A stretch of DNA of 64,000 nt, taken from NCBI RefSeq assembly GCF_030013595.1, contig NZ_CP122768.1; one strand, 5' to 3'. Below the pieces are notes generated by a model. The model was not told the origin of the DNA, did no database searches, and was given only the letters and a program-made list of their open reading frames with translations. The stretch comes from Escherichia coli. Lineage in GTDB: Bacteria; Pseudomonadota; Gammaproteobacteria; Enterobacterales; Enterobacteriaceae. This document shows, one piece after another, positions 3,568-44,860 of the stretch (the stretch's first letter is position 1; the number at the start of each line of letters is the position of its first letter). The translations under genes and the position numbers were made by a program.

Positions 3568-3631
3568 TGATGCTGATATCGGGCTGGAATGGCCCGATAG
3601 TATTTAACTTTCTCTATAAGAATGGTTATAT

Positions 3632-4690: not shown

Positions 4691-4730
4691 TCGTCACTTA
4701 ATAATTTTGGTTTACCGCGGGCGCGCGTTG

Positions 4731-6503: not shown

Positions 6504-6514
6504 GGAAAACCATC

Positions 6515-6766
6515 ATGACAGACCAACAAACCATTTATCAGGAAGTCTCAGCCCTGCTGGTTAAGCTGTTTGAAATCGATCCGCAGGACATCAAACCTGA
6601 AGCGCGACTGTACGAAGATCTGGAACTGGACAGCATCGACGCCGTTGACATGATTGTGCACCTGCAAAAGAAAACCGGTAAGAAAATCAAGCCGGAAGAG
6701 TTTAAAGCAGTGCGTACAGTCCAGGATGTTGTCGAGGCTGTAGAACGCCTGCTACAAGAAGGCTAA
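6515..6766 (+). CDS. Acyl carrier protein (second of tandem pair)
   Basis: 83-aa acidic ORF with LELDSIDAV motif. Confidence 0.85.
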   Translation: MTDQQTIYQEVSALLVKLFEIDPQDIKPEARLYEDLELDSIDAVDMIVHLQKKTGKKIKPEEFKAVRTVQDVVEAVERLLQEG

Positions 6767-6767
6767 T

Positions 6768-8707: not shown

Positions 8708-9047
8708 AATTGAGCGCCATCTGGTTCAACCGCAGGAGATGGAAATCGTTCTATACCTTGACCCGATGCTCTACTGGTTTAATGGTCATTTTGCCGTACA
8801 GCCTCTGTTACCAGGCGTGGCCCAGTTGGACTGGGTAATGCATTATGCTACCACGCTGCTTGCTCCGGGCTGGCGTTTTCGTAGTATCCAGAATGTTAAA
8901 TTTCTGGCGCCACTTATACCTGAGACGACTGTTACCCTGCAATTAACATGGCAGGAAACAAGTCAGGTACTCACTTTCTGCTATCAGCGTCACGACGGTG
9001 ACGCCCGCCACACCGCCAGTAGCGGGAAGATCCGTCTATGTCGGTAA
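8664..9047 (+). CDS. Hot-dog fold dehydratase/thioesterase-like protein
   Basis: About 120-aa ORF in the position of the small dehydratase of APE clusters; start may be the ATG at 8694. Confidence 0.55.
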   Translation: MSMRNYRSYFMIRHEIERHLVQPQEMEIVLYLDPMLYWFNGHFAVQPLLPGVAQLDWVMHYATTLLAPGWRFRSIQNVKFLAPLIPETTVTLQLTWQETSQVLTFCYQRHDGDARHTASSGKIRLCR

Positions 9048-10714
9048 ACTTTTCTCCCTGCGTGTTGATCCCCTGCTACAACCACGGCGCGATGATGCCG
9101 GGCGTGCTGGCGCGTCTTAAGCCATTTAATCTGCCCTGTATTGTGGTGGATGACGGCAGCGATGCCGCCACGCAACAGCAACTGGATAATCTGGTTAGCG
9201 AACAGCCTGGCGTGACCTTAATTCGCCTGGCAGAAAACGCAGGTAAAGGCGCAGCGGTGATGCGTGGCTTGCAGGCAGCGGCAGACGCAGGGTTCAGCCA
9301 TGCGGTGCAGGTGGATGCTGACGGTCAACATGCGATTGAAGATATCCCCAAACTGCTGGCACTCGCTGAACAACACCCTGTGGCGCTGATCTCCGGTCAG
9401 CCAATTTACGATGACTCCATTCCCCGCTCACGGCTGTACGGGCGCTGGGTCACCCACGTCTGGGTATGGATCGAAACGCTCTCCCTGCAACTGAAAGACA
9501 GCATGTGCGGTTTTCGCGTTTATCCGGTTGCGCCGACGCTGCAACTGGCAAAACGCGCCACCATCGGCAAGCGGATGGATTTCGACACCGAAGTGATGGT
9601 GCGCCTCTACTGGCAGGGAAATACCAGCTATTTCGTGCCGACCCGCGTCACCTATCCACTGGACGGGCTTTCGCATTTTGATGCCCTGAAAGATAACGTC
9701 CGCATCTCGCTCATGCACACGCGTCTGTTTTTCGGCATGTTGCCGCGTATTCCTTCACTGCTGATGTGCCACTCTTCCAGCCACTGGGCGCGGCAGAGTG
9801 AAGTTAAAGGGTTATGGGGAATGCGCCTGATGCTGCTGGTCTGGCGTCTGCTGGGAAGAACGGCGTTTACCGCGCTGCTTTACCCGGTGGTTGGCGTCTA
9901 CTGGCTCACCGCTGCTCGTGCGCGTAAAGCGTCGCAAGACTGGCTCGCCCGTGTGCGCCAACAACAACCACAGGCAGCAAAAATCAACAGCTATCAGCAC
10001 TTTCTACGTTTCGGCAACGCCATGCTCGACAAAATCGCCAGCTGGCGCGGCGAGCTGCAACTCGGGCGTGATGTGCTGTTTGCGCCAGGCGCAGAAGCGG
10101 CGCTTGACGTCCGCGATCCGCGCGGCAAATTGCTGCTGGCCTCACATCTTGGCGATGTGGAAGTGTGCCGGGCGCTGGCAAAAATTGAGGGCTACAAAAC
10201 CATTAACGCGCTGGTGTTTAGCGAAAACGCCCAACGCTTTAAACAGATAATGCAGGAGATGGCTCCCCAGGCAGGCATTAACCTGATGCCGGTAACAGAT
10301 ATCGGCCCGGAAACCGCCATCCTGCTGAAAGAGAAGCTGGATAACGGCGAATGGGTGGCGATTGTCGGTGACCGCATCGCCGTCACCCCGCAACGCGGCG
10401 GCGACTGGCGCGTCTGCTGGAGTCCGTTTATGGGCCAGCCTGCGCCCTTCCCACAGGGGCCGTTTATTCTCGCCTCTATTTTGCGCTGCCCGGTGAATCT
10501 GATTTTCGCCCTACGCCAGCACGGCAAGCTGCATATTCACTGCGAAACCTTTGCCGACCCGCTGCTGTTGCCGCGTGGCGAACGCCAACAGGCGCTGCAA
10601 AACGCTATCGACCACTACGCCGCGCGTCTGGAACATTACGCGCTCCAGTCGCCCCTCGACTGGTTTAATTTTTTCGATTTCTGGCAACTGCCGGAAATTC
10701 AGGACAAGGAGTAA
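9038..10714 (+). CDS. Fusion protein: family-2 glycosyltransferase N-terminal domain plus lipid-A-type (LpxL/HtrB-like) acyltransferase C-terminal domain
   Basis: N-terminus CVLIPCYNH...VVDDGSDAAT...VQVDADGQH (GT2 DxD-type motifs); C-terminal about 330 aa with membrane anchor and acyltransferase-like region. Confidence 0.7.
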   Translation: MSVNFSPCVLIPCYNHGAMMPGVLARLKPFNLPCIVVDDGSDAATQQQLDNLVSEQPGVTLIRLAENAGKGAAVMRGLQAAADAGFSHAVQVDADGQHAIEDIPKLLALAEQHPVALISGQPIYDDSIPRSRLYGRWVTHVWVWIETLSLQLKDSMCGFRVYPVAPTLQLAKRATIGKRMDFDTEVMVRLYWQGNTSYFVPTRVTYPLDGLSHFDALKDNVRISLMHTRLFFGMLPRIPSLLMCHSSSHWARQSEVKGLWGMRLMLLVWRLLGRTAFTALLYPVVGVYWLTAARARKASQDWLARVRQQQPQAAKINSYQHFLRFGNAMLDKIASWRGELQLGRDVLFAPGAEAALDVRDPRGKLLLASHLGDVEVCRALAKIEGYKTINALVFSENAQRFKQIMQEMAPQAGINLMPVTDIGPETAILLKEKLDNGEWVAIVGDRIAVTPQRGGDWRVCWSPFMGQPAPFPQGPFILASILRCPVNLIFALRQHGKLHIHCETFADPLLLPRGERQQALQNAIDHYAARLEHYALQSPLDWFNFFDFWQLPEIQDKE

Positions 10715-10717
10715 AGG

Positions 10718-11140
10718 GTGCTTAACGATCCCCGATTTACCGCTGAAGTCGAGCTGACCATTCCCTTTCACGACGTCGATATGATGGGCGTGGCCTGGCA
10801 CGGTAACTATTTTCGCTACTTTGAAGTGGCCCGCGAGGCGCTGCTCAACCAGTTCAATTACGGCTATCGGCAGATGAAAGAGTCCGGTTATTTGTGGCCA
10901 GTGGTCGATGCGCGGGTGAAATATCGCCACGCCCTCACCTTTGAGCAACGCATCCGCGTGCGTGCGCATATCGAAGAGTTCGAAAACCGTCTGCGGATTG
11001 GCTATCAGATTTTCGATGCCGAAACGGGCAAACGCGCCACCACCGGATACACCATTCAGGTCGCAGTCGACGAGCAAAGCCGCGAACTGTGCTTTGTCAG
11101 CCCCGATATTCTGTTTGAACGCATGGGAGTCAAACCATGA
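10718..11140 (+). CDS. 4HBT-type acyl-CoA/ACP thioesterase (hot-dog fold)
   Basis: 140-aa ORF with GTG start; resembles YbgC/4-hydroxybenzoyl-CoA thioesterase family. Confidence 0.7.
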   Translation: MLNDPRFTAEVELTIPFHDVDMMGVAWHGNYFRYFEVAREALLNQFNYGYRQMKESGYLWPVVDARVKYRHALTFEQRIRVRAHIEEFENRLRIGYQIFDAETGKRATTGYTIQVAVDEQSRELCFVSPDILFERMGVKP

Positions 11141-11742
11141 AATTTTTACCGCTGCTGGCGCTGCTGATTAGCCCGTTTGTGAGCGCCCTGACCCGGGACG
11201 ATCTTCAGCAACGCTTTACCGAACAACCGGTGATCCGCGCCCATTTCGATCAAACCCGGACGATTAAAGATCTGCCGCAGCCGCTGCGATCTCAGGGTCA
11301 GATGTTGATCGCCCGCGACCAGGGGTTATTGTGGGATCAAACCTCACCGTTCCCCATGCAACTATTACTGGACGATAAACGCATGGTGCAGGTGATCAAC
11401 GGTCAGCCGCCGCAAATCATCACGGCAGAAAACAACCCACAGATGTTCCAGTTTAACCACCTGCTGCGCGCGCTGTTCCAGGCCGATCGCAAAGTGCTGG
11501 AACAAAACTTCCGCGTCGAATTTGCCGACAAAGGCGAAGGCCGCTGGACGCTGCGCCTGACGCCGACCACCACGCCGCTGGACAAAATTTTCAACACCAT
11601 CGATCTCGCCGGGCAAACCTATCTGGAGAGCATTCAGCTTAATGATAAACAGGGCGATCGCACCGATATCGCTCTTACCCAACATCAACTGACACCAGCG
11701 CAACTGACCGATGACGAACGCCAACGCTTTGCCACCCAGTAA
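11137..11742 (+). CDS. LolA-like outer-membrane lipoprotein carrier protein
   Basis: 201-aa ORF with signal peptide; LolA-like by recall of family features and position beside the MMPL exporter. Confidence 0.65.
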   Translation: MKFLPLLALLISPFVSALTRDDLQQRFTEQPVIRAHFDQTRTIKDLPQPLRSQGQMLIARDQGLLWDQTSPFPMQLLLDDKRMVQVINGQPPQIITAENNPQMFQFNHLLRALFQADRKVLEQNFRVEFADKGEGRWTLRLTPTTTPLDKIFNTIDLAGQTYLESIQLNDKQGDRTDIALTQHQLTPAQLTDDERQRFATQ

Positions 11743-14029
11743 ACGCCCCGCGCTGTTATGGGGGCTAGTCTGCCTGGTCATGGCGGCGGCGTTGCTGATC
11801 CTGCTGCCACAATCACGACTGAACAGTAGCGTGCTGGCTATGTTACCCAAACAGGCGATGGGCGATATTCCTCCGGCGCTGAATGACGGCTTTATGCAGC
11901 GTCTGGACCGCCAACTGGTGTGGCTGGTCAGCCCCGGTAAAGAGGCTAATCCCAGGGTGGCTCAGGAGTGGCTGACGCTGCTGCAAAAATCCGCTGCGCT
12001 CGGCGACATTAAAGGGCCAATGGATGCCGCCAGCCAGCAGGCGTGGGGAGCGTTTTTCTGGCAGCACCGCAACGGCCTGATTGACCCCGACACCCGCGCC
12101 CGCCTGCAAAATGGCGGCGAAGCGCAGGCGAAGTGGATCCTCTCCCAGCTTTATTCTGCGTTCTCCGGGGTAAGCGGCAAGGAGCTGCAAAACGATCCGC
12201 TGATGTTAATGCGCGGCTCGCAGCTGGCGATGGCGAAAAATGGCCAGCGTTTACGACTAATGGACGGCTGGCTGGTGACGCAGGATCCCCAGGGCAATTA
12301 CTGGTATCTGCTGCACGGCGAACTGGCGGGATCGTCGTTTGATATGCAGCAAACCCACCAGCTCATCACGACCCTGAATACGCTGGAAAAGGCTCTGAAA
12401 ACGCGTTACCCGCAGGCGCAGTTGCTCTCACGCGGCACGGTGTTTTACAGCGATTACGCCAGCCAACAGGCGAAGCAGGATATCTCCACCCTGGGCGTGG
12501 CAACGCTGCTGGGGGTGATATTGCTGATTGTGGCGGTGTTCCGCTCTTTGCGCCCGTTGCTGCTTTGCGTGATTTCCATCGGCATCGGCGCGCTGGCGGG
12601 AACGGCCGCCACATTGTTGATTTTCGGTGAATTACACCTGATGACGCTGGTGATGAGCATGAGCGTTATCGGCATTTCCGCTGACTACACGCTCTATTAT
12701 CTCACCGAGCGGATGGTGCACGGCAACGACGTTTCGCCGTGGCAAAGCCTGGCGAAAGTACGCAATGCCCTGCTGCTGGCGCTGCTCACAACCGTGGCGG
12801 CATATCTGATTATGATGCTCGCCCCCTTCCCCGGCATTCGCCAGATGGCGATTTTTGCCGCCGTCGGGTTGAGCGCCTCTTGTCTGACCGTCCTGTTCTG
12901 GCATCCGTGGCTGTGCCGTGGTCTGCCGGTGCGCCCGGTTCCGGCGATGGCGCTGATGCTACGCTGGCTGGCAGCGTGGCGGCGCAATAAAAAACTGTCG
13001 CGGGGTCTGCCCGTTGCGCTGGCGCTGTTTTCGCTGGCGGGGATGTCAATGCTGCGCGTCGATGACGATATCTCGCAGTTACAGGCGCTGCCGCAGCACA
13101 TTCTGGCGCAGGAGAAAGCCATTACCGCCCTGACCGGACAAAGCGTCGATCAAAAATGGTTTGTAGTTTACGGCGACTCCCCACAGCAAACATTGCGGCG
13201 ACTGGAGAAATATACCGCCTCACTTGAGTATGCGAAAAAAGAGGGGCTTATCAGCAACTACCGCACTATTCCGCTGAACTCCCTGGCGCGGCAGGAGGAA
13301 GACTTAGACCTGCTGAAAACGGCTGCCCCGACGGTAACAAAAGCACTGCAAAATGCAGGGCTGACGGCGGTGAAACCAGATCTCAACGCCATGCCGGTGA
13401 AGGTCGATGAATGGCTGGCAAGCCCCGCCAGTGAAGGCTGGCGTCTGCTGTGGCTGACGCTGGAAAACGGCGAAAGCGGTGTACTGGTGCCGGTTGAAGG
13501 GGTTAAAAGTAGCGCATTGTTGCAGGAAATCGCCAGCTATTACCCTTGCGGCATTGCCTGGGTTGATCGCAAAAGCTCCTTTGATGAATTGTTCGCACTT
13601 TACCGCTACGTCTTAACCGGCTTGTTGCTGGTGGCGCTGGCAGTGATTGCCTGCGGCGCAGTGGCCCGTCTCGGCTGGCGCAAAGGGCTTATCAGCCTGG
13701 TGCCTTCGGTGCTTTCGCTGGGCTGTGGTCTGGCGGTGCTGGCGATGAGCGGGCAGGCGGTGAATCTCTTTTCGCTGCTGGCGCTGGTGCTGGTGCTTGG
13801 CATCGGTATCAACTACACGCTGTTTTTCAGTAATCCGCGCGGTACACCGTTAACTTCGCTACTGGCGATCGCGCTGGCAATGCTCACCACCTTGCTGACG
13901 CTGGGAATGCTGGTATTCAGCGCCACCCAGGCCATCAGCAGTTTTGGCATTGTGCTGGTGAGCGGTATTTTCACCGCCTTCCTGCTTTCGCCGCTGGCTA
14001 TGCCCGATAAAAAGAGAACAAAAAAATGA
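11711..14029 (+). CDS. MMPL/RND-superfamily membrane exporter
   Basis: About 770-aa ORF with two blocks of transmembrane helices separated by soluble domains; exact start codon uncertain. Confidence 0.8.
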   Translation: MTNANALPPSKRPALLWGLVCLVMAAALLILLPQSRLNSSVLAMLPKQAMGDIPPALNDGFMQRLDRQLVWLVSPGKEANPRVAQEWLTLLQKSAALGDIKGPMDAASQQAWGAFFWQHRNGLIDPDTRARLQNGGEAQAKWILSQLYSAFSGVSGKELQNDPLMLMRGSQLAMAKNGQRLRLMDGWLVTQDPQGNYWYLLHGELAGSSFDMQQTHQLITTLNTLEKALKTRYPQAQLLSRGTVFYSDYASQQAKQDISTLGVATLLGVILLIVAVFRSLRPLLLCVISIGIGALAGTAATLLIFGELHLMTLVMSMSVIGISADYTLYYLTERMVHGNDVSPWQSLAKVRNALLLALLTTVAAYLIMMLAPFPGIRQMAIFAAVGLSASCLTVLFWHPWLCRGLPVRPVPAMALMLRWLAAWRRNKKLSRGLPVALALFSLAGMSMLRVDDDISQLQALPQHILAQEKAITALTGQSVDQKWFVVYGDSPQQTLRRLEKYTASLEYAKKEGLISNYRTIPLNSLARQEEDLDLLKTAAPTVTKALQNAGLTAVKPDLNAMPVKVDEWLASPASEGWRLLWLTLENGESGVLVPVEGVKSSALLQEIASYYPCGIAWVDRKSSFDELFALYRYVLTGLLLVALAVIACGAVARLGWRKGLISLVPSVLSLGCGLAVLAMSGQAVNLFSLLALVLVLGIGINYTLFFSNPRGTPLTSLLAIALAMLTTLLTLGMLVFSATQAISSFGIVLVSGIFTAFLLSPLAMPDKKRTKK

Positions 14030-14610
14030 TCAAATCCACATTCTGGCGAGCGTTCGCCCTGACCGCTACGCTTATCCTCACCGGCTGTAGCCACTCGCAA
14101 CCAGAACAGGAAGGCCGCCCGCAGGCGTGGCTGCAACCTGGCACGCGCATCACGCTGCCGGCACCAGGGATTTCACCCGCAGTCAATTCGCAGCAACTGT
14201 TGACCGGCAGCTTCAACGGCAAAACCCAGTCGCTGTTAGTGATGCTTAACGCCGACGATCAGAAAATCACCCTTGCCGGGCTGTCGTCGGTCGGCATTCG
14301 CCTGTTTCTGGTGACCTACGATGCGCAAGGGCTACGCGCCGAGCAATCCATCGTCGTCCCACAGTTACCGCCCGCAAGTCAGGTACTGGCTGACGTGATG
14401 CTCAGCCACTGGCCGATTAGCGCCTGGGAGGCGCAACTTCCCGCAGGATGGACACTTCGCGACAACGGTGACAAACGCGAGCTGCGTAACGCCAGCGGCA
14501 AACTGGTCACGGAAATCACCTATCTGAATCGCCAGGGAAAACGCGTGCCAATCAGAATTGAGCAGCATGTCTTTAAATACCACATCACCATTCAATACTT
14601 AGGTGAATGA
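14026..14610 (+). CDS. Lipoprotein of unknown function
   Basis: 194-aa ORF with lipobox LTGC; ATGA overlap with upstream exporter gene. Confidence 0.65.
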   Translation: MIKSTFWRAFALTATLILTGCSHSQPEQEGRPQAWLQPGTRITLPAPGISPAVNSQQLLTGSFNGKTQSLLVMLNADDQKITLAGLSSVGIRLFLVTYDAQGLRAEQSIVVPQLPPASQVLADVMLSHWPISAWEAQLPAGWTLRDNGDKRELRNASGKLVTEITYLNRQGKRVPIRIEQHVFKYHITIQYLGE

Positions 14611-14611
14611 T

Positions 14612-15781
14612 ATGATTTATATTTCCGCCGTCGGCATGATCAACGCCCTGGGAAATAACCTTGACGAAATCGCAGCCAACCTGGCTCGCGGTGTCGCCCC
14701 CGGCATGCGCCCACGCGCAGGCTGGTTGCAGGGGCATCCGCAGGCGGTCCTGGCTGGCGTGGATGGCGAGCTTCCGCTTATCCCGGAAAAATTCGCTGCG
14801 CATCGCTCGCGCAACAATCAGATCCTGCTGGCGGCGCTGGCGCAGCTCCAGCCGCAGGTTGATGACGCTATCGCGAAATATGGCTGCGAGCGCATCGCGA
14901 TTGTGCTTGGCACCAGCACCTCCGGCCTGCATGAAGGCGACACGCACGTTAACCTGCACACCCACGGGCAGCCGAGCACCACGTGGCACTATGCACAACA
15001 AGAACTCGGCGATCCGTCGCGTTTTCTCAGCCACTGGCTGGCGCTCGACGGCCCGGCTTATACCCTTTCAACCGCCTGCTCCTCCAGTGCCAGAGCAATG
15101 ATCAGCGGGCGCAGGCTTATCGAAGCGGGGCTGGTCGATGCCGCCATTGTGGGTGGCGCAGACACCCTGAGCCGAATGCCGATTAACGGTTTTCACAGCC
15201 TCGAATCGCTCTCGCCAACCTTATGTCAGCCGTTTAGTCGTGACCGCGCAGGTATCACCATTGGTGAAGGGGCGGGGCTAATGCTGCTGACCCGGGAACC
15301 GCAGCCCATCGCGTTGCTGGGCGTTGGTGAATCGAGCGACGCTTACCATATTTCAGCCCCGCATCCGCAGGGCGAAGGAGCGATCCGCGCTATTAATCAG
15401 GCGCTGACCGATGCGCAGCTTACGCCGGATGACGTCGGCTATATCAACCTGCACGGCACCGCCACACAGCTCAACGACCAGATTGAATCAATGGTGGTTA
15501 ACGCCCTGTTTGGCGAACGCGTACCGTGCAGCTCCACCAAACATTTGACCGGACACACGCTCGGCGCGGCTGGCATTACCGAGGCGGCAATTAGTATGTT
15601 GATTTTACAGCGTGATTTACCGCTGCCCGCTCAGGACTTCAGCCTGTCGCCGCGCGATCCCACGCTGCCACCGTGTGGCATTATCGAAAAACCGCAGCCG
15701 CTGGCACGTCCGGTGATCCTGTCCAATTCCTTCGCCTTTGGCGGCAATAACGCCAGCATTCTGCTCGGGAGGGTTTCGTGA
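14612..15781 (+). CDS. Beta-ketoacyl-ACP synthase (FabF/FabB-like KS)
   Basis: About 390-aa ORF with KS catalytic-region motifs (active-site Cys context STACSS, HGTAT, GHTLGAAG); ATG at 14612 preceded by AGGTGA. Confidence 0.85.
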   Translation: MIYISAVGMINALGNNLDEIAANLARGVAPGMRPRAGWLQGHPQAVLAGVDGELPLIPEKFAAHRSRNNQILLAALAQLQPQVDDAIAKYGCERIAIVLGTSTSGLHEGDTHVNLHTHGQPSTTWHYAQQELGDPSRFLSHWLALDGPAYTLSTACSSSARAMISGRRLIEAGLVDAAIVGGADTLSRMPINGFHSLESLSPTLCQPFSRDRAGITIGEGAGLMLLTREPQPIALLGVGESSDAYHISAPHPQGEGAIRAINQALTDAQLTPDDVGYINLHGTATQLNDQIESMVVNALFGERVPCSSTKHLTGHTLGAAGITEAAISMLILQRDLPLPAQDFSLSPRDPTLPPCGIIEKPQPLARPVILSNSFAFGGNNASILLGRVS

Positions 15782-16242
15782 GCCACTATTTATCCCCCGG
15801 CGCTTATCTGCCCCACGACGCGCCCATGTTACTGCTGGAAGACGTGGTGAGCGTCAGCGATGACAGCGCGGTGTGCCGCGTGACGGTTTCGCCCAGTGGC
15901 GTACTGGCACCGTTTCTCGACCCGGACGGCAATCTCCCTGGCTGGTTTGCCCTTGAACTGATGGCGCAAACCGTCGGCGTCTGGTCTGGCTGGCATCGCC
16001 ACCAGCAGGGCAAAAACAGTATTGAGTTAGGGATGATACTGGGCGCGCGTGAATTGCTTTGCACCACTGGCATTCTGCCCGCAGGCCAGACGCTGACCAT
16101 TACCGTCAAACTGCTGATGCAGGACGATCGCTTCGGCAGCTTTGAGTGCAGCATCAACGACGGCGAGGCGACGGGCCGCATTAACACCTTCCAGCCGACC
16201 GCGGAAGAACTTACCACCCTGTTTCAACAAGGAGCGTCCTGA
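15778..16242 (+). CDS. FabA/FabZ-like 3-hydroxyacyl-ACP dehydratase (hot-dog fold)
   Basis: 154-aa ORF, GTG start overlapping upstream stop. Confidence 0.7.
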   Translation: MSHYLSPGAYLPHDAPMLLLEDVVSVSDDSAVCRVTVSPSGVLAPFLDPDGNLPGWFALELMAQTVGVWSGWHRHQQGKNSIELGMILGARELLCTTGILPAGQTLTITVKLLMQDDRFGSFECSINDGEATGRINTFQPTAEELTTLFQQGAS

Positions 16243-16973
16243 TGAGTCGTTCAGTTCTGGTTACTGGTGCCAGCAAAGGCATTGGTCGCGCCATCGCCTG
16301 CAAGCTTGCGGCAGACGGCTTTAACATTGGCGTTCACTATCACCGTGACGCCACAGGCGCTCAGGAAACGCTGAATGCCATTGTCGCCAACGGGGGTAAC
16401 GGGCGTTTGCTCAGTTTCGACGTCGCAAACCGCGAACAGTGTCGGGAAGTGCTGGAGCATGAGATCGCGCAACACGGTGCCTGGTACGGCGTGGTCAGTA
16501 ACGCCGGGATCGCCCGCGATGCCGCTTTTCCGGCTTTAAGCGATGACGACTGGGATGCGGTGATCCACACCAACCTCGACAGTTTCTACAACGTCATTCA
16601 GCCGTGCATTATGCCAATGATCGGCGCGCGCCAGGGTGGGCGCATCATCACGCTGTCCTCGGTTTCCGGCGTAATGGGCAATCGCGGCCAGGTGAATTAC
16701 AGCGCAGCCAAAGCCGGAATTATCGGCGCAACAAAAGCACTGGCTATCGAACTCGCAAAGCGCAAAATCACCGTCAATTGCATCGCGCCAGGGCTTATTG
16801 ATACCGGGATGATCGAAATGGAAGAAAGCGCTCTGAAAGAGGCAATGTCGATGATCCCCATGAAACGTATGGGCCAGGCGGAAGAAGTTGCCGGGCTTGC
16901 CAGTTATTTAATGTCTGATATTGCGGGTTACGTCACCCGCCAGGTTATTTCCATCAACGGAGGGATGTTATGA
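16242..16973 (+). CDS. 3-oxoacyl-ACP reductase (FabG-like short-chain dehydrogenase)
   Basis: 243-aa ORF with NAD(P)-binding TGASKGIGRA and SDR catalytic YSAAK motif. Confidence 0.9.
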   Translation: MSRSVLVTGASKGIGRAIACKLAADGFNIGVHYHRDATGAQETLNAIVANGGNGRLLSFDVANREQCREVLEHEIAQHGAWYGVVSNAGIARDAAFPALSDDDWDAVIHTNLDSFYNVIQPCIMPMIGARQGGRIITLSSVSGVMGNRGQVNYSAAKAGIIGATKALAIELAKRKITVNCIAPGLIDTGMIEMEESALKEAMSMIPMKRMGQAEEVAGLASYLMSDIAGYVTRQVISINGGML

Positions 16974-18199
16974 CACGTCGCGTAGTGATTACAGGAATGG
17001 GCGGCGTGACTGCCTTTGGTGAAAACTGGCAGGACGTTTCTGCACGCTTACTGGCGTATGAAAATGCGGTGCGCAAAATGCCGGAGTGGCAGGTCTACGA
17101 TGGGCTGCACACCCTGCTTGGCGCGCCTGTTGATGATTTCACGCTACCGGAGCACTACACCCGCAAGCGTATCCGTGCGATGGGCCGCGTGTCGCAAATG
17201 TCGACCCGTGCCAGCGAGCTGGCGTTAGAGCAGGCAGGGTTGATTGGCGATCCGATATTAACCAGCGGCGAAACGGGCATTGCGTACGGTTCATCGACCG
17301 GCAGTACCGGTCCGGTGAGCGAATTTGCCACCATGCTGACTGAAAAGCACACGAACAACATCACTGGCACCACCTATGTGCAGATGATGCCGCACACCAC
17401 CGCTGTTAATACTGGCCTCTTTTTCGGCCTGCGCGGGCGGGTGATCCCAACCTCCAGCGCCTGTACCTCCGGCAGCCAGGCGATCGGTTATGCGTGGGAA
17501 GCCATTCGCCACGGTTATCAAACGGTGATGGTTGCCGGTGGTGCCGAAGAGTTATGCCCTTCAGAAGCAGCAGTGTTTGATACCCTTTTTGCCACCAGCC
17601 AGCACAATGATGCGCCGAAAACCACACCTTCACCGTTCGATGAAAACCGCGACGGACTGGTGATTGGTGAAGGCGCAGGTACGCTCATTCTCGAAGAACT
17701 GGAGCATGCCAAAGCGCGCGGCGCGACCATTTACGGTGAAATCGTCGGCTTTGCGACGAACTGCGACGCGGCACATATTACCCAGCCGCAGCGCGAAACC
17801 ATGCAGTATTGTATGGAGCAATCGCTGAAAATCGCAGGGTTAAGCGCACAAGATATCGGCTATATTTCAGCGCATGGTACGGCGACCGATCGCGGTGATA
17901 TGGCAGAAAGTCTGGCGACAGCAACCATTTACGGTGATAATGTGCCGCTCTCCTCGCTGAAAAGTTATTTTGGTCATACGCTTGGTGCCTGTGGCGCGCT
18001 CGAAGCCTGGATGAGTCTGCAAATGATGCGCGAAGGTTGGTTTGCGCCTACGCTAAACCTGAATAAACCAGACCCGAATTGTGGCGCGCTGGATTACATC
18101 ATGCATGAAGCCCGCAGGGTTGATTGTGAGTTTTTGCAGAGTAACAACTTTGCCTTTGGCGGCATTAATACATCCATCATTATTAAGCGCTGGCCCTGA
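16970..18199 (+). CDS. Beta-ketoacyl-ACP synthase (FabB/FabF-like KS)
   Basis: 409-aa ORF with KS motifs (SSACTSG, HGTAT, GHTLGACG); ATGA overlap with reductase gene. Confidence 0.9.
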   Translation: MTRRVVITGMGGVTAFGENWQDVSARLLAYENAVRKMPEWQVYDGLHTLLGAPVDDFTLPEHYTRKRIRAMGRVSQMSTRASELALEQAGLIGDPILTSGETGIAYGSSTGSTGPVSEFATMLTEKHTNNITGTTYVQMMPHTTAVNTGLFFGLRGRVIPTSSACTSGSQAIGYAWEAIRHGYQTVMVAGGAEELCPSEAAVFDTLFATSQHNDAPKTTPSPFDENRDGLVIGEGAGTLILEELEHAKARGATIYGEIVGFATNCDAAHITQPQRETMQYCMEQSLKIAGLSAQDIGYISAHGTATDRGDMAESLATATIYGDNVPLSSLKSYFGHTLGACGALEAWMSLQMMREGWFAPTLNLNKPDPNCGALDYIMHEARRVDCEFLQSNNFAFGGINTSIIIKRWP

Positions 18200-18206
18200 G
18201 TTATAC

Positions 18207-18229
18207 AACCACATGGACATCCCATGTGG
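18207..18229 (+). terminator. Hairpin immediately after the last cluster gene (weak terminator candidate)
   Basis: accacatgg / ccatgtggt inverted repeat with 5-nt loop; no strong T-run, so low confidence. Confidence 0.3.
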
Positions 18230-19038
18230 TGATTCTTCAAAAAATCTGAATCAATGAATATGAACCTCAAATTCTCTTACGCATACTGAAGAGCATTCCG
18301 TATAACGATTCAGCAGACAAAACTTTATCAGTCCACACGAATCAACGGATGCACAGATGACACGCCCGGTTATCACCGGGCAATGGTTGCCATAACGGGT
18401 AACATAAGGGACTGAACAGTTGTCTTTAGCGCAACGAACTGATCTAACGTACCTGAACGGACAACCTGAAAACAGTCTTTCACCCTGCATTGTCCGCCAG
18501 TGCTTATTACCAACCACGTCTGTTGCAGTAAAGTAATCAGTTGCGAACATTATTTATCAATCGTGACGCTGGCTCGCGCATGGCAGAAAAGGTCCTGACT
18601 GAGCAACAACAGGCATCGTACTGTTGCTGCTCCATGTTGTTTATATGAACGCATCCCGTTTGCAAGGCTTCCGTGTTTTTGACGTTGACGGTAGATTGCT
18701 GCTCTATATCCTTATTGCAGCCGGTGCTGCGGGCCTCAATGAGATTCGCTGACTCTCGCCTTATTCACGCAACGAGCTTTAAGCTCAGAAAAACATCCAA
18801 GTTTGGTGAGTCACAGTCTTACCTGTCGTTGTCATCAATATAGGAATGGATAATCTGGAGAGCGATACTGCAGGCTGATATTGCGGTTTTGCGACAAGTT
18901 TTTAGCATCCGCTTCTACGCCAAATACCTGAAGTAGGAATGGATGCGTTAGCAGCATACATCCGGAACTGCGCGGGGAATAGCCGGAAACGGCTATCCCT
19001 ACCACAATAGCTAACTTTGTAATAGCGCTCTTTTAGGC

Positions 19039-20070
19039 TCATGTACTCTGACGTAATTCTATCTGGTAGTTGAATTGCACGATACGCGACTCTTCTGATT
19101 CATCATGATTATTATTCAATAGTCCAATCAGTAACTTACCTGTCTCTATCCCCATTTTTTTGTAGTCAATACGGATGGATGTCAAAGTTGGGTGTGTTTG
19201 ATCGCAATTGTCTGAACCGTCAAGACAAGCTACAGCGATATTTCCAGGGATTTTTAACAAACGCCGCTGGCACTCAAACATTATACCCAGCGCAATCTCT
19301 TCGTGGCTGCAAATCACAGCATCCAGCTCTGGTTGTCGCAGTAATATCTCGTTTAATGCGTAACGCCCCAATTGCAGACTTGCGGCATCCGGCATGGTGA
19401 TAACAAGATCAGTGTTCTGGTAATGGCTCAGCATTGCTTTATGCCAGCCGTTCAGTTGCTGACGTTGCAGGCGGTTGTCCATATGCGCACCGATAAATCC
19501 GATATTCTTATAACCCTGCTCCAGCAGATGTTCGGTCAGTTTATGTGATGCTTCAAAAAATGCTGTTTCGATGGTAATTTGAGCCGGACTGAAAGGGGAA
19601 CCGATAACGTTAATGGTAGGTATATTTGTTTTCTCGAGTATCTGGTGAGTTTTATCAGCCAACTGAGAACCAAAAATAACTAACGCCGCCGGGTTGCCTT
19701 GAAGAAGCGTCATCAGAATTTCAGCTTCTTTGAGCTGATTATACTCATGACACCCAAGCAGTAGCTGGAATTCATTTTTATTAAGCACCTGCTGTAATGA
19801 CTGCATAAAGCGGGAGCTGGCTTTATCTGTCAGGGAAGGAACCAGTACGGCGACTGTATGACTGTGACCAGATGCAAGGGCGCCAGCAGTTCTGTTGGGA
19901 ATATAACCCAACTCTTCTACGGCCTGTTCTATCTTTTCCCTCAGCTTGTCAGAAACCTGTTCCGGTGTTCTCAGCGCGCGGGAAACGGTCATAGTTCCGA
20001 CACCTGCAAAGTTAGCGACCTCCTGCAGCGTCACCCGTCCGGTACCACGGCGCTTACGTGTTTTTTCCAT
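19039..20070 (-). CDS. LacI/GalR-family transcriptional regulator
   Basis: 343-aa ORF with N-terminal HTH (VTLQEVANFAGVGTMTVSRAL) and periplasmic-binding-protein-like sugar-binding domain. Confidence 0.9.
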   Translation of the reverse strand: MEKTRKRRGTGRVTLQEVANFAGVGTMTVSRALRTPEQVSDKLREKIEQAVEELGYIPNRTAGALASGHSHTVAVLVPSLTDKASSRFMQSLQQVLNKNEFQLLLGCHEYNQLKEAEILMTLLQGNPAALVIFGSQLADKTHQILEKTNIPTINVIGSPFSPAQITIETAFFEASHKLTEHLLEQGYKNIGFIGAHMDNRLQRQQLNGWHKAMLSHYQNTDLVITMPDAASLQLGRYALNEILLRQPELDAVICSHEEIALGIMFECQRRLLKIPGNIAVACLDGSDNCDQTHPTLTSIRIDYKKMGIETGKLLIGLLNNNHDESEESRIVQFNYQIELRQST

Positions 20071-20215
20071 TTCGACTCCATGGATAATTACAACCAGCTG
20101 TTTTCATTACTTTTATTTCACCATTACTCTTTCCAGTTTTTGCCCACGGTAGCAAATATCCTGTTGCATTGTATATGCAGGAACCGAATATAGCCAAAGC
20201 ATGGCGGCAGAGAAA

Positions 20216-20263
20216 TGATAGCGCTATCACAAAGATTGGTAGCGTTATCAGATAGCGCTATCA
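20216..20263. promoter_or_regulatory. Two copies of a 14-bp palindrome (TGATAGCGCTATCA and AGATAGCGCTATCA), candidate LacI-family operators
   Basis: Perfect and near-perfect palindromes at 20216-20229 and 20250-20263, in the divergent intergenic region between the regulator and the PTS operon. Confidence 0.55.
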
Positions 20264-20340
20264 AATGCGACAATCATCACATTAATTAATGCGTAAAATA
20301 TCTACTCTCCTGTTAATTATCATCGGGAGTTATCAGTAGC

Positions 20341-20784
20341 ATGTTAAAAAATCTATTAAATACAGAGGTCGTTCAGGTCGTGGAACAGGTCAAAGACTGG
20401 CGGGAAGCCGTGGCGATTTCATGCCGACCGTTGATTGAAAACGGCTCTATCGAACCGCGTTATGTTGATGCGATCTATCACTCGCACGACACTATCGGTC
20501 CGTACTATGTGGTTGGCCCTGGTATTGCGATGCCTCATGCGCGCCCGGAAGAGGGGGCTAACAAGCTGTCATTAGCACTGACCCTGATCCCTTCAGGTGT
20601 GAATTTTGATGCCGATGAAAACGATCCAGTGAAATTACTGATTGTGCTGGCTGCAACCGACAGTACCAGCCACATTGAAGCGATTTCTCAACTCGCCAAG
20701 TTATTCGATAACGAAAAAGACATACAGGCCATTTTGACGGCCAAAACGACGCAGGACATTTTGTCTGTTATTGCGCGCTATTAA
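20341..20784 (+). CDS. PTS EIIA component (mannitol/fructose/ascorbate-type EIIA)
   Basis: 147-aa ORF with active-site His context (GIAMPHAR). Confidence 0.85.
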   Translation: MLKNLLNTEVVQVVEQVKDWREAVAISCRPLIENGSIEPRYVDAIYHSHDTIGPYYVVGPGIAMPHARPEEGANKLSLALTLIPSGVNFDADENDPVKLLIVLAATDSTSHIEAISQLAKLFDNEKDIQAILTAKTTQDILSVIARY

Positions 20785-20799
20785 TCCAGAGGAACATTT

Positions 20800-21087
20800 A
20801 TGAAAATTACAGTGGTTTGCGGTAACGGCTTAGGCACCAGCCTGATGATGGAAATGAGCATTAAAAGCATTTTGAAGGATTTGTCCGTCAGCGCTGATGT
20901 TGATCACGTCGACCTGGGCTCCGCGAAAGGGACGCCGAGTGATATCTATGTCGGCACCAAAGACATTGCCGAGCAGTTAGCCGCGCAGTCTGTCGCAGGC
21001 AAAATCGTCGCACTGGAAAATATGATTGATAAGAAAGCCATGAGAGAACGTTTGTCCGTGGTATTAACCGAATTAGGCGCACTGTAA
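20800..21087 (+). CDS. PTS EIIB component (ascorbate/galactitol-type)
   Basis: 95-aa ORF with N-terminal phospho-Cys motif VVCGNGLGTS. Confidence 0.85.
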   Translation: MKITVVCGNGLGTSLMMEMSIKSILKDLSVSADVDHVDLGSAKGTPSDIYVGTKDIAEQLAAQSVAGKIVALENMIDKKAMRERLSVVLTELGAL

Positions 21088-21099
21088 GCTGGGGGCGAT

Positions 21100-22356
21100 A
21101 TGGATTTCTTTCGTTTTTTGATGAGCGATGTACTTTCCGAACCCGCAGTGCTGGTCGGTTTAATCGCCCTGATTGGCCTGATTGCACAGAAAAAACCGGT
21201 AACCGAATGCATTAAAGGTACCGTCAAGACCATTATGGGGTTTGTGATTTTAGGCGCAGGGGCGGGTTTAGTTGTGTCGTCACTGGGTGACTTCGCAAAC
21301 ATTTTCCAGCATGCCTTTGGTATTCAGGGTGTAGTGCCGAACAATGAAGCCATTGTTTCCGTAGCGCAGAAAAGCTTCGGGAAAGAAATGGCGATGATTA
21401 TGTTCTTTGCGATGGTTATCAACATTATGATTGCCCGTTTCACACCGTGGAAATTTATCTTCCTGACCGGTCATCACACGTTGTTTATGTCGATGATGGT
21501 AGCGGTAATTCTGGCAACAGCAGGCATGACCGGCATTACGCTTATAGCCGTTGGCTCTTTGGTTGTTGGCGTGGCAATGGTCTTTTTCCCGGCTATTGCG
21601 CATCCGTACATGAAGAAAGTGACCGGTTCTGATGACGTTGCCATCGGCCACTTCTCAACATTATCTTATGTATTGGCCGGTTTCATCGGCAGCAAGTTTG
21701 GTAATAAAGAGCACTCGACTGAAGACATGAATGTGCCGAAAAGTCTGCTGTTCTTGCGCGACACGCCGGTTGCTATCTCTTTTACCATGAGCATAATTTT
21801 CCTGGTGACGTGCCTGTTTGCGGGTGCAGATGCGGTGAAAGAGCTTAGCGGTGGTAAAAACTGGTTCATGTTCTCTATCATGCAATCCATTACCTTCGCA
21901 GCTGGCGTGTACATCATTCTGCAGGGTGTGCGCATGGTGATTGCGGAGATTGTCCCGGCATTCAAAGGTATTTCAGACAAGCTGGTTCCGAATGCCAGAC
22001 CTGCTCTCGATTGCCCGGTCGTCTTCCCTTACGCACCTAACGCTGTACTGGTTGGTTTCCTGAGTAGCTTTGCTGCAGGTTTAATCGGTATGTTCACGTT
22101 GTATCTGCTGAACATGATCGTGATTATTCCTGGTGTGGTGCCGCACTTCTTCGTAGGTGCAGCTGCAGGGGTATTCGGTAATGCAACGGGTGGACGTCGT
22201 GGTGCGATTTTGGGTGCCTTCGCTCAGGGCTTGCTTATTACCTTCCTGCCAGTATTCTTATTGCCGGTGCTGGGTGATATTGGTTTTGCTAACACCACCT
22301 TCAGTGATGCTGACTTTGGCGCACTGGGTATTTTGTTAGGGATTATCGTTCGCTAA
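21100..22356 (+). CDS. PTS EIIC permease (UlaA/SgaT family)
   Basis: 418-aa polytopic membrane ORF following IIA and IIB. Confidence 0.85.
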   Translation: MDFFRFLMSDVLSEPAVLVGLIALIGLIAQKKPVTECIKGTVKTIMGFVILGAGAGLVVSSLGDFANIFQHAFGIQGVVPNNEAIVSVAQKSFGKEMAMIMFFAMVINIMIARFTPWKFIFLTGHHTLFMSMMVAVILATAGMTGITLIAVGSLVVGVAMVFFPAIAHPYMKKVTGSDDVAIGHFSTLSYVLAGFIGSKFGNKEHSTEDMNVPKSLLFLRDTPVAISFTMSIIFLVTCLFAGADAVKELSGGKNWFMFSIMQSITFAAGVYIILQGVRMVIAEIVPAFKGISDKLVPNARPALDCPVVFPYAPNAVLVGFLSSFAAGLIGMFTLYLLNMIVIIPGVVPHFFVGAAAGVFGNATGGRRGAILGAFAQGLLITFLPVFLLPVLGDIGFANTTFSDADFGALGILLGIIVR

Positions 22357-22369
22357 TATTTTGATGACA

Positions 22370-22425
22370 TTAATATCCTCCAGGATTTCAGGAACGTGGA
22401 GGATATTAATTCCTCTTATTTTCTC
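22370..22425 (+). terminator. Rho-independent terminator after the PTS EIIC gene
   Basis: Perfect 13-bp inverted repeat ttaatatcctcca / tggaggatattaa (22370-22382, 22397-22409) followed by T-rich tract. Confidence 0.6.
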
Positions 22426-22571
22426 CATTTTTCTTTCTTCCAGTCAGGACTGCATCCGATTAATCGTAAGCGCTCCGAGAAGTACGTAGCGTAAGGATTA
22501 TTTTACAGCTGAGAAGTTTCAGTGCAGCAGTTCATGCACACGGTTCGACGGCTAGTCATTGATCTTCATAA

Positions 22572-22856
22572 TTACCTCGCGTAAAAAACGGGGTAAGGCC
22601 GCTCATCCAGCGTCATCTCCACAGGTAATAATTCAACGCCAATGCCAGAAGAGTTCGTTACCGGAAGACGCCGTGATATACGCCCTTTGATCAGCGAGAG
22701 CCTGAGCCATTTGAACAGAAGATTATCATTGATATCATGCTCCCGGGCAATACGGGCAACAGAACCCCTTGGTTGTAAAGCCAGTTTAACCATTTGAAGT
22801 TTAAACTCATTTGAAAATGACCTGCGGGGTTCAACTGATAATGTTTTTTGTTCCAT
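22572..22856 (-). mobile_element. IS3-family transposase OrfA-like remnant (degraded)
   Basis: 94-aa ORF with the helix-turn-helix region typical of IS3-family OrfA (FSNEFKLQMVKLA...SVARIAREHDINDNLLFKWLR); no intact second transposase ORF or terminal repeats seen. Confidence 0.5.
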
Positions 22857-23277
22857 AACAGGTGTCCACTAGTTGAAAAGGTGGGTACCTATGTTACCAA
22901 TACTGGCTTAATGGCTACATACAGCAGTCGGTTTACGCATACACTTTTATAGTGCACTCCGGCCTCATGAATATAACGGTGGATTACCGCCGAACGAATC
23001 GGAAAATAGATACTGGAAAAAAACTGAAATTGTGACCAGTTTTTGTTGACCACTACAAATAAATAAAAGAGTTGCAGTGCTTGCTCGGTAAGAAAACAAT
23101 GGAGGTTAAGCTCCTCAAAGAAGCTGTGGAGTACACCACTCTACAGTAGTTGCGCAAATTTGGAGTGGACGATAATGTGATCGTCTATAAGGGCAACGCT
23201 ATCATAGTCTTGTCCTGGCGGGTAAAAAAACGCGCTTACCTTAACGATAAGCGCGCCGCTGTTCAGGCCTTGAGTGG

Positions 23278-24291
23278 TTATTCAATTCCTGTGGTGACTG
23301 TAAAAGTGCGCGTTTGCTGCGGTGCAACCTGAATCAGCGTGCCATTACGTTGCGCGGCAAGATACCCCTCAGGCCGACAGGTTGCAGGTAATGCAAAGGC
23401 GGCTACCTGTTGCTCTCCGTTATAAAGGATCCAGCGTGTCACATAATTTAGTTCAGCACTGTAGAAACGAGTAACAAACGTAGTGCCATCGGGAGAGATC
23501 ATGCGAAACTCTGGCTGATCTGTATAAGCGTCCAGTTTGTCTGCAAAGAAGACAATTTCTGGATCATAAAATTCCGGTTGACTCAGCGTCGACAGAGAGG
23601 CTTCTCCCTGCATAATCCGTTGATTAAACGCCAGCCACTGAGCGGTGGGATTAACATGCGAAGGCACTGATTCACGCAATCTTAATATTTCGTCCGGGAT
23701 ATTCTGGCTGAATGTAGCATTTGGTATATATGCATAATTCATGTGGCACATATATTGTAGTGGCATATCTACAGAAGCCAGATTGGTTACGGCCATCTTA
23801 ATATCGAACAGTGTAGAGGATTTGTGAAGGACCACTGTTGGCTGAGCCAGATAATGATGACCGAAACCCATTACATACTCGTAACGCCCGTTAAGGCGTA
23901 ACATATCTCCGTCTAATTCCAGCCATGCTTCATCCATCGCGGCACAGGCCATTTCACCGTGTAGCAGATGAGTATCTTCCACAGATGGGCAGCCATTAGC
24001 CAGCAAACCTGAATGAAAAGCAAAACAGCCATAGGTCTCTATCACCTCTGTCGCCGGTTTAGGCTGGCGAAACATATTGCACATGGTGAGGCCGTGTCCA
24101 TCAAATTGCGCATCCCAAATCATCTGCCCCATCCAGGGAAGAATAATCAAATGTCCACGACTGTTTGCAATTTTAAGCCCCTCGACACCGCTGTCATATC
24201 GAAAAGACGTGACAGTAAAATCACTATTTTCCAGCAAGATACGAGGTTTCTCGCCAAAAAGCGCCCGCCACAAATTAATACGCGTACTCAT
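23278..24291 (-). CDS. deoX: DeoX-like protein of the deoxyribose operon (function unknown, possibly mutarotase-like)
   Basis: 337-aa ORF downstream of the kinase and permease in the same orientation; assignment by operon synteny with Salmonella/pathogenic E. coli deoK-deoP-deoX as recalled. Confidence 0.55.
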   Translation of the reverse strand: MSTRINLWRALFGEKPRILLENSDFTVTSFRYDSGVEGLKIANSRGHLIILPWMGQMIWDAQFDGHGLTMCNMFRQPKPATEVIETYGCFAFHSGLLANGCPSVEDTHLLHGEMACAAMDEAWLELDGDMLRLNGRYEYVMGFGHHYLAQPTVVLHKSSTLFDIKMAVTNLASVDMPLQYMCHMNYAYIPNATFSQNIPDEILRLRESVPSHVNPTAQWLAFNQRIMQGEASLSTLSQPEFYDPEIVFFADKLDAYTDQPEFRMISPDGTTFVTRFYSAELNYVTRWILYNGEQQVAAFALPATCRPEGYLAAQRNGTLIQVAPQQTRTFTVTTGIE

Positions 24292-26557: not shown

Positions 26558-26572
26558 GGTAATGACTCCAAC

Positions 26573-27076
26573 TTACTGATAGTGTTTTATGTTCAGATAA
26601 TGCCCGATGACCTTGTCATGCAGCTCCACCGATTTTGAGAACGACAGTGACTTCCGTCCCAGCCTTGCCAGATGTTGTCTCAGATTCAGGTTATGCCGCT
26701 CAATGCGCTGAGTATAACGCTTGCTGATAACGTGCAGCTTTCCCTTCAGGCGTGATTCATACAGCGGCCAGCCATCCGTCATCCATACCACGACCTCAAA
26801 GGCCGACAGCAGGCTCAGAAGACGCTCCAGTGTGGCCAGAGTGCGTTCACCGAAGACGTGCGCCACAACCGTCCTCCGCATCCTGTCATACGCGTAAAAC
26901 AGCCAGCGCTGACGTGATTTAGCACCGACGTAGCCCCACTGTTCGTCCATTTCAGCGCAGACAATCACATCACTGCCCGGTTGTATGCGCGAGGTTACCG
27001 ACTGCGGCCTGAGTTTTTTAAGTGGCGGAAAATCGTGTTGAGGCCAACGCCAATAATGCGTGCACTGGCGCGACAT
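26573..27076 (-). CDS. insB: IS1 transposase InsB reading frame
   Basis: 167-aa ORF matching IS1 InsB with a few substitutions relative to the K-12 copy as recalled. Confidence 0.9.
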
Positions 27077-27270
27077 CCGACGCCATTCATGGCCATATCA
27101 ATGATTTTCTGGTGCGTACCGGGCTGAGAGGCGGCGTAAGTGAACTGTAGTTGCCATGTTTTACGGCAGTGAGAGCAGAGATAGCGCTGATGTCCGGCGG
27201 TGCTTTTGCCGTTACGCACCACCCCGTCAGTAGCTGAACAGGAGGGACAGCTGATAGAAACAGAAGCCAC
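26995..27270 (-). CDS. insA: IS1 InsA
   Basis: 91-aa [19 protein letters not shown]...; start codon here is GTG. Confidence 0.9.
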
Positions 27271-27325
27271 TGGAGCACCTCAAAAACACCATCATACACT
27301 AAATCAGTAAGTTGGCAGCATCACC

Positions 27326-28027
27326 GACAATGCAGATGGTTCAACCATGCTGGATAAACGTTATGTCATCACTAACGGTAATCAGCTGGCGATTCAAAAT
27401 GATTTACTGGAGAGTTTATCAAAAGCGTTAAACCAACCGTGGCCACAACGAATGCAGGAGATGCTCCAGCAAATTTTGCCTCATCGTGGTGCGTTATTAA
27501 CTAATTTTTATCAGGCACATGATTATTTACTGCATGGCGATGATAAATCATTGAACCGTGCCAGTGAATTATTAGGTGAGATTGTTCAATCATCCCCAGA
27601 ATTTACCTACGCGAGAGCAGAAAAAGCATTAGTTGATATCGTGCGCCATTCTCAACATCCTTTAGATGAAAAACAATTAGCAGCACTGAACACAGACATA
27701 GATAACATTGTTACACTACCGGAATTGAATAACCTGTCCATTATATATCAAATAAAAGCGGTCAGTGCTCTGGTAAAAGGTAAAACAGATGAGTCTTACC
27801 AGGCGATAAATACTGGCATTGATCTTGAAATGTCCTGGCTAAATTATGTGTTGCTTGGCAAGGTTTATGAAATGAAGGGGATGAACCGGGAAGCAGCTGA
27901 TGCATATCTCACCGCCTTTAATTTACGCCCAGGGGCAAACACCCTTTACTGGATTGAAAATGGTATATTCCAGACTTCTGTTCCTTATGTTGTACCTTAT
28001 CTCGACAAATTTCTCGCTTCAGAATAA
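27326..28027 (+). pseudogene. cadC: cadC 3' fragment (C-terminal about 233 codons of the ToxR-like activator); 5' half replaced by IS1
   Basis: ORF ends about 365 bp upstream of cadB in the position and orientation of cadC; begins abruptly at the IS1 end. Confidence 0.8.
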
Positions 28028-44092: not shown

Positions 44093-44107
44093 GGTAATGA
44101 CTCCAAC

Positions 44108-44805: not shown

Positions 44806-44860
44806 TGGAGCACCTCAAAAACACCATCATACACTAAATCAGTAAGTTGGCAGCATCACC

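Follow-up and report, generated by a model that had tools for sequence, protein, structure and literature searches.

Fragments of IS66- and IS3-family elements between the vpe operon and the deoK cluster of Escherichia coli

The window, a stretch of 64,000 nucleotides from Escherichia coli, contains a 921-bp interval (22357–23277) between two convergent gene modules, and this interval is 100% identical in many complete E. coli genomes. On its left lie a LacI-type regulator (19039–20070, minus strand) and a PTS EIIA/EIIB/EIIC-GAT operon (20341–22356, plus strand), which are the published vpe operon (VpeR, VpeA, VpeB and VpeC); the stop codon of vpeC, the plus-strand EIIC gene, at 22356 marks the left edge. 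On its right, the minus strand carries the DUF4432/aldose-epimerase-like gene deoX (23278–24291, with its stop at 23278) together with genes for a FucP-type permease and a ribokinase-type kinase, which are the deoK cluster (DeoM/X, DeoP and DeoK). Each module has retained its own terminator-like hairpin, and both hairpins are located outside the insertion sequence (IS) debris that fills the interval (Table 1). A first-pass annotation had described this debris as the OrfA-like remnant of an IS3-family element, devoid of OrfB and of evident terminal repeats, at an old insertion or recombination scar. The 94-aa open reading frame (ORF) on which that description relied does exist on the minus strand between vpeABC and deoX(deoM)-deoP-deoK and does encode an HTH transposase domain. 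The absence of OrfB was also borne out, as tblastn of 18000–23400 returned TnpA-like sequence as the sole coding sequence, with neither a tnpB/OrfB-type gene nor an intact transposase gene.

Table 1. Positions in the window of the features within the interval and at the left border of the vpe module
Feature	Position	Strand	Description
ECs1377-family prophage-like fragment	18270–18641		
IS66 tnpB-like piece, 52 bp	18640–18691		88% identity to the ISSfl3 locus
IS110-family (ISEc21-like) fragment	18837–19038		
Probable vpe operon terminator	22369–22410	+	Perfect 14-bp inverted repeat, then T-rich sequence, right after the vpeC stop; outside the IS debris
Terminator-like site overlapping the vpe hairpin	22398–22416		
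Right arm of the IS66 scar	22466–22584	-	IRR (outer end 22466, GTAAGCGCTCCGAGAAG...) and last 10 tnpC codons with stop (22552–22584); ISSfl3-like, 86.7% identity (L004/L010)
94-aa ORF	22572–22856	-	Residues 1–85, N-terminal HTH part of IS66-family TnpA; residues 86–94 (RPYPVFYAR), out of frame across the joint into tnpC'
Joint between the IS66 arms	22585–22600		Deletion or recombination point; about 13–16 nt that could be assigned to neither arm
Left arm of the IS66 scar	22601–22942	-	5' 256 nt of tnpA (22601–22856), leader with hairpin, IRL (outer end 22942, degenerate GTATGCG); IS682/ISEc23 group
IS911-like (IS3 family) 3' end	22943–23057	+	Last ~100 nt of orfB and IRR (...GTTGACCACTACA); left side cut by the IS66 IRL
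Secondary ISEc23 insertion site	23038–23045		ST131-type strains (L006), 8-bp duplication AGTTTTTG; empty in the window
IS2-like (IS3 family) orfA 3' fragment	23058–~23136	+	..KKTMEVKLLKEAVEY..; left side interrupted by the IS911-like end
Secondary IS2 insertion site	23180–23184		Other strains (L007), 5-bp duplication ATCGT; empty in the window
deoX (deoM) rho-independent terminator	23229–23257	-	12-bp stem, then T run

The 94-aa ORF is a remnant of an IS66-family TnpA and not an IS3 OrfA. Its product matched Pfam HTH_Tnp_1 with 51 bits (E=1.3e-13, cutoff 24), a domain common to IS3 OrfA and IS66 TnpA, which makes the IS3 label understandable. Discrimination came from the NCBIfam models, since the two IS66 TnpA models (NF038385, E=2.5e-18; NF047595, E=2.5e-16) gave 66.3 and 60.3 bits, both under their full-length cutoffs because the 94-aa protein is truncated, compared with 21.9 bits for transpos_IS3, whose cutoff is 160. 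Protein alignment of residues 1–85 with IS682 TnpA agreed with this placement. As the ORF is transposase-derived, a non-transposase regulator is not what the fragment matches.

The reading of the ORF as OrfA of an IS3-family element that has lost OrfB and its ends could appeal to the shared HTH domain, to the weak match to the NCBIfam IS3 transposase model and to the presence of true IS3-family fragments 90–280 bp away. That match falls far short of its cutoff and below the scores of both IS66 models. At the nucleotide level, the DNA shares 89.5% identity with IS682 tnpA and stays collinear with that element into its IRL, and on the other side come the tail of an IS66 tnpC and an IS66 IRR, oriented as expected. 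Neither an orfB with a DDE integrase-like domain and a -1 frameshift, expected after an IS3 OrfA, nor TG...CA repeats with 3–5 bp duplications were found around the ORF, which instead enters the IS66 tnpC tail and has IS66 ends of the GTAAGCG type on either side (22466 and 22942). The IS3 OrfA reading can therefore practically be dismissed. An IS3-family remnant at this junction is real all the same, in the form of two other fragments within 22943–~23136 (IS911-like and IS2-like) that do not overlap the ORF and by coincidence lie in the same interval, so the family label fails for the ORF and holds for its neighbours.

The IS66-family material spans 22466–22942. Its right end begins at 22466 (GTAAGCGCTCCGAGAAGTACG...) and is nearly identical to the ISSfl3 IRR, and its left end, which aligns collinearly with the IRL of IS682, has its outer limit at 22942 (...GGTTTACGCATAC), exactly where strain MFDS1006657 (L005) diverges structurally from the window. 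Both ends conform to the GTAAGCG start of IS66 terminal repeats, the IRR as GTAAGCGCTCCG... and the IRL as GTATGCGTAAACC... with one change. Together with the IS911-like IRR ending at 23057, they overturn the earlier statement that no terminal repeats are evident.

The left arm aligned without gaps with IS682 (L002 3501–3842) from tnpA codon 85 to the IRL tip, with 89.5% identity over 342 bp, compared with 74% for ISEc23; as it diverges from IS682 by about 10%, the arm represents neither of these two named elements. Elements of the IS682/ISEc23 group are about 2.5 kb long, with the gene order tnpA-tnpB-tnpC, GTAAGCG... ends and 8-bp duplications, as exemplified by the intact IS682 in the O157:H7 locus (L002 1310–3842, 2533 bp, 8-bp duplication GAGAAAGA). 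The leader hairpin of IS682 is conserved in the scar, which differs from IS682 in keeping 342 of about 2533 bp, in the loss of tnpB, in carrying ten tnpC codons from another lineage and in its mutated IRL tip. The right arm showed 88–90% identity to other IS66 tnpC 3' ends (H86–H88). Its IRR (GTAAGCGCTCCGAGAAGTACGTAGCGTAAGG...) agrees with that of ISSfl3 at nearly every base of the first ~45 nt and its last ten tnpC codons (REVIMKIND*, stop at 22552–22554) resemble the TnpC C-terminus of ISSfl3 (..REVIxKxND*), although overall identity is 86.7% over 119 bp alone. Between the arms, tnpC homology to intact elements stops at 22581–22584 and tnpA homology begins at about 22598–22601.

Beyond the HTH-containing TnpA part, which is homologous to IS66-family TnpA, the gene complement of an IS66 element is gone. 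About 2 kb is missing: tnpA has lost its 3' third, tnpB is gone entirely, and almost nothing is left of tnpC, the DDE transposase gene. With tnpB absent and the last ten tnpC codons alone remaining, the interval holds a remnant and not an element, and no intact IS emerges on frame correction, as 477 bp is left of a roughly 2.5 kb IS66-type element. The ORF itself is decaying across strains, in which its length is 94, 84, 49 or 38 aa or its start is missing, and it differs from IS682 at 15 non-synonymous and 10 synonymous codons.

The two arms look like parts of two different IS66-family elements. The scar IRL and IRR match at 11 of 30 positions, compared with 22 of 30 for the ends of intact IS682, and ISSfl3 tnpA is no more than 77% identical to the tnpA' of the scar over 86 bp; on these two grounds the scar is read as a hybrid. 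No 8-bp target duplication surrounds it, the flanking octamers being GATTAATC and ACTTTTAT, in contrast to the duplications present in intact IS682 and ISEc23 (GAGAAAGA and AGTTTTTG, respectively). Because these octamers differ, the scar does not represent a simple insertion.

A single IS66-family element with one internal deletion, derived from a now extinct parent that resembled IS682 at its left end and ISSfl3 at its right and inserted once downstream of vpeC, would account for two arms that share one orientation and stand in the right order for one element. IS66 members are modular in this sense, with variable left ends beside a conserved tnpB and tnpC; L016, L018 and ISEc23, for instance, share an identical tnpB with left ends that differ by 10–25%, and the same joint occurs in more than one context (chromosome and pAA plasmid). 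The mismatched ends and the missing 8-bp duplication speak against such a parent. Furthermore, neither the 5426 E. coli genomes nor the 72,556 plasmids yielded an intact element combining these two ends, and the best intact relatives among complete genomes and plasmids reach about 90% identity. A single deleted element is thus regarded as unlikely, if worth keeping in mind, and the hybrid of two IS66-family copies is preferred.

A protein search did recover full-length TnpA proteins of the window type (P0018, P0019, P0020, P0037 and P0050). The two whose contigs were inspected, P0018 (L016) and P0019 (L019), are encoded on low-coverage short-read ENA metagenome contigs, on which the full-length tnpA is linked to the same IS911-like flank or to deoX. 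These five proteins continue into three different C-terminal halves past a 21-nt conserved word located just before the joint, and this word at the C-terminal switch is conserved among IS66 copies. Complete genomes contained no full-length window-type tnpA on the same flank. In view of the low coverage, the three C-terminal continuations and the lack of this state in complete genomes, the five proteins were rejected as the parent and are considered probable assembly chimeras, in which the tnpA' of the scar has been joined at the 21-nt word to the remainder of different intact IS66 copies. L019 also lacks the DNA corresponding to window 22902–23096, and the breakpoints share the microhomology ATTG. 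Another candidate, P0033 (141 aa), turned out to be a chance-extended ORF at the ST131-type locus. No state preceding the fusion, with vpeC followed by an intact ISSfl3-like element, was found on the vpe side, where a synthetic query joining the vpeC flank to ISSfl3 tnpC returned split matches only and nothing contiguous. The motif CGCTTAC at about 23233 was likewise discarded as an IS66 left end, because it is part of the deoX terminator stem and the true IRL ends at 22942.

To the right of the IS66 left end, both remaining fragments belong to the IS3 family according to DNA homology to named elements, including a terminal repeat. The first (22943–23057) is 82% identical to IS911 over 112 bp (L014 1801–1912, the end of the annotated IS911 transposase CDS) and ends exactly at the IRR. 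The second is 77% identical to IS2 orfA over 71 bp (23063–23133). Short and diverged as they are, the two fragments represent relatives of IS911 and IS2 and not the named elements. In strain E272 (L003), a longer IS2-like copy adjoins deoX (73% over 159 bp, annotated as a frameshifted transposase pseudogene) without interruption by IS911- or IS66-type sequence. The deoK cluster of this strain lies in another context from which vpe is absent.

From left to right, the interval is composed of the vpe terminator, an ISSfl3-like IS66 right end, the joint of 13–16 nt, the 5' part of tnpA with an IRL of IS682/ISEc23 type, the IS911-like orfB tail with its IRR, the IS2-like orfA fragment and the deoX terminator. 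It is very probably a non-functional composite scar, made of four IS fragments of three IS lineages and lodged between the terminators of two separately acquired accessory modules (vpe and deoX/M-deoP-deoK) of an E. coli tRNA-Phe-type genomic island. In the history proposed here, an IS2-like element would have adjoined deoX at the start, an IS911-like element would then have inserted into the IS2-like orfA, and the IS911-like copy would next have been cut off by an IS66-type element. The relative order on the deoK side (IS2-like, IS911-like, IS66-type truncation) follows from the uninterrupted longer IS2-like copy in E272. About 2 kb, including the 3' end of tnpA, tnpB and nearly all of tnpC, may have been lost through deletion or illegitimate recombination between two different IS66-family copies. 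The vpe and deoK modules would have been joined during that IS66 event or through flanking recombination. We infer this order of events and the actual fusion boundary from the arrangement of the fragments, and the candidates for the boundary are the internal joint (22585–22600) and the IRL edge (22942/22943).

Judging from its sequence, the interval would have no activity of its own now, being unable to encode a transposase and holding a decaying ORF. By analogy, it would behave like any IS graveyard at the boundary of genomic-island modules, as an inert record of past insertions and deletions. The family label of the ORF is accordingly corrected from IS3 to IS66, and the bare "transposase" of RefSeq appears to be a dead hybrid fragment. 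IS debris of this kind would glue the accessory modules vpe and deoK, both reported as colonisation and fitness factors, into tRNA-Phe islands.

Comparison of the junction across strains, which the first-pass annotation had proposed, located the uninterrupted 921-bp interval in 944 of 5426 complete E. coli genomes and the scar joint in 1340 of them (about 25%), with a median of one and a maximum of three places per genome. Each module was found without the other. MFDS1006657 carries vpe and the scar in the absence of deoK, as do plasmid segments bounded by IS26, and E272 carries deoK and the IS2-like remnant in the absence of vpe. Together with the differing octamers, these states uphold the view of an old IS or recombination scar at a mosaic junction. 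In MFDS1006657, identity to the window is 98–100% as far as about 22598; from there to the IRL the sequence resembles IS682 (92–96% to IS682, 82–92% to the window) and then passes into a different flank. A homologous crossover inside tnpA', with a further IS682-like copy as partner, best accounts for this state.

The scar appears to provide homology that travels with it and a harmless target for additional IS insertions and recombination. This is illustrated by the MFDS1006657 recombinant, by the insertions of ISEc23 (ST131-type strains) and IS2, and by IS26 capture onto plasmids of E. coli, Klebsiella and Citrobacter. For the same vpe block, the joint at 22585–22600 offers a convenient lineage marker.

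The chromosomal scar copies examined adjoin vpeC, and the plasmid copies came by IS26 capture of the whole vpe segment. In E. coli plasmid pRHBSTW-00304_2 (L013 1554–5758), a segment equivalent to window 19011–23214 is situated between IS26 copies. Klebsiella pneumoniae plasmid pINF102.6 (L011) bears a related vpe segment with an adjoining IS26, and its vpeC is also interrupted by ISEc22. The Citrobacter portucalensis plasmids H95 and H96 gave scar matches in the sequence search. A 297-bp piece of the hybrid scar resides on the EAEC plasmid 55989p and the O104:H4 pAA plasmids (L012 4001–4409), near aar/aatP (aar/aat). It corresponds to window 22521–22817 with 97% identity, includes the joint and lacks either end; an ISSfl3-type right end truncates it on one side.

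These copies bear on the proposal that the 477-bp unit might be a MITE-like IS66 derivative that is not autonomous and relies on resident IS66-family transposases for movement in trans. Such a derivative would be expected to keep both terminal repeats, as the unit does, and could draw on the intact IS66-family elements common in E. coli; the joint also recurs in a second context, on pAA plasmids. Yet the unit is essentially single-copy, its examined chromosomal copies share the vpeC neighbourhood and its plasmid copies are explained by IS26, and the pAA copy is without both ends. Moreover, the ends of the unit are mismatched, the IRL tip is mutated (GTATGCG), the target duplication is absent, and multiple dispersed copies with matching ends and target duplications were not seen in complete genomes. 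Mobility of this kind is highly improbable, and the inert composite scar is retained as the preferred account.

Reuse of the remnant was considered from two sides, with the 94-aa ORF as a small HTH regulator or with a small RNA resembling AfaR that would be transcribed outward through the IS66 left end. The allele of the window encodes an intact HTH domain, although the ORF is truncated, frameshifted or startless in other strains. For the RNA, window 22839–23043 (plus strand) matched the Rfam model AfaR (RF02515) with 33 bits and an E value of about 5e-4, far under the gathering threshold of 100, and model positions ~10–107 alone, the IS66 left-end part, aligned well. AfaR itself carries an IS66 left-end fragment and comes from afa-8 islands (PAI II AL862) that also carry deoK. 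The similarity is nevertheless limited to that shared left end, which does not include the sigma-E promoter of afaR, and this promoter is absent here. Reuse in either form is extremely improbable.

In the comparison locus (L015 1501–1730, the afaD-afaE intergenic region of strain PF9285), afaR nt ~11–107 are an IS66-family left-end fragment in antisense, from the tnpA ATG to the IRL tip, with 80% identity to IS682 and 77% to the window. The AfaR paper mentions similarity to IS2 at the 3' end only (PMC3664800). The nucleotides of AfaR validated for pairing, CA109/110, come immediately after the IRL tip. The sub-threshold match is due to the IS66 left end common to afaR and the scar, and an AfaR homologue in the interval was rejected on this ground and for want of the afaR promoter. 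The broader conjecture that the IS66 left-end remnant (about 22840–22942, plus strand) might give an outward-reading AfaR-related small RNA, or that the hybrid 477-bp unit might still be mobilised in trans, is very doubtful. If such an RNA did exist, the IS66 left-end fragments dispersed over E. coli islands would repeatedly give rise to regulatory RNAs.

The arrangement of vpe, "transposase" and deoK is already published and annotated, and is in itself an ordinary finding. The gene order of the window is that of the vpe-"transposase"-deoK block of pheV/pheU islands (LAC PAI, PAI II AL862 and ROD 40). The LAC PAI table lists VpeR/A/B/C, ORF38 "transposase" and DeoM/P/K/Q (PMC6455142, supplement 17). 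A small "transposase" ORF is placed between vpeC and deoM in LAC PAI as in L001, a locus 100% identical to the interval that shares with the LAC PAI table the accessions of VpeR (WP_000416157.1), VpeA (WP_000916811.1), VpeC (WP_000345347.1), DeoP (WP_000998349.1) and DeoK (WP_000350265.1). ROD 40 of NCTC 86 carries both vpe and deoK, the deoK operon being thought to derive from Salmonella. Publications on the pheV/pheU block give the ORF as "transposase" only, without family or anatomy.

Upstream of vpe, the left border (18200–19038) consists of IS and prophage debris, so that vpe is bracketed by IS remnants on both sides. Still further upstream, window ~3000–18200 holds a cluster resembling fatty-acid/aryl-polyene synthesis genes, including those for an ApeP-family dehydratase, FabG2 and several beta-ketoacyl-ACP synthases. 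This cluster corresponds to ORFs 17–33 of LAC PAI, which the LAC PAI authors relate to O-island 138.

The block of the window is further truncated than the published ones, because an IS1 removes deoQ and the start of deoK. Two identical IS1 copies of 768 bp are present in direct orientation (26558–27325 and 44093–44860). The first copy stands in place of the initial 10 nt of deoK, of deoQ and of the remainder of the island, and connects deoK' with the last 226 codons of cadC (27347–28027), beyond which lie cadB and cadA. The consequence of this joint is that cadC is inactivated and deoK is left without a promoter or start. The deoK'-IS1 joint was found in 0 of 5426 complete E. coli genomes, and some pig isolates carry IS1 at the same cadC position.
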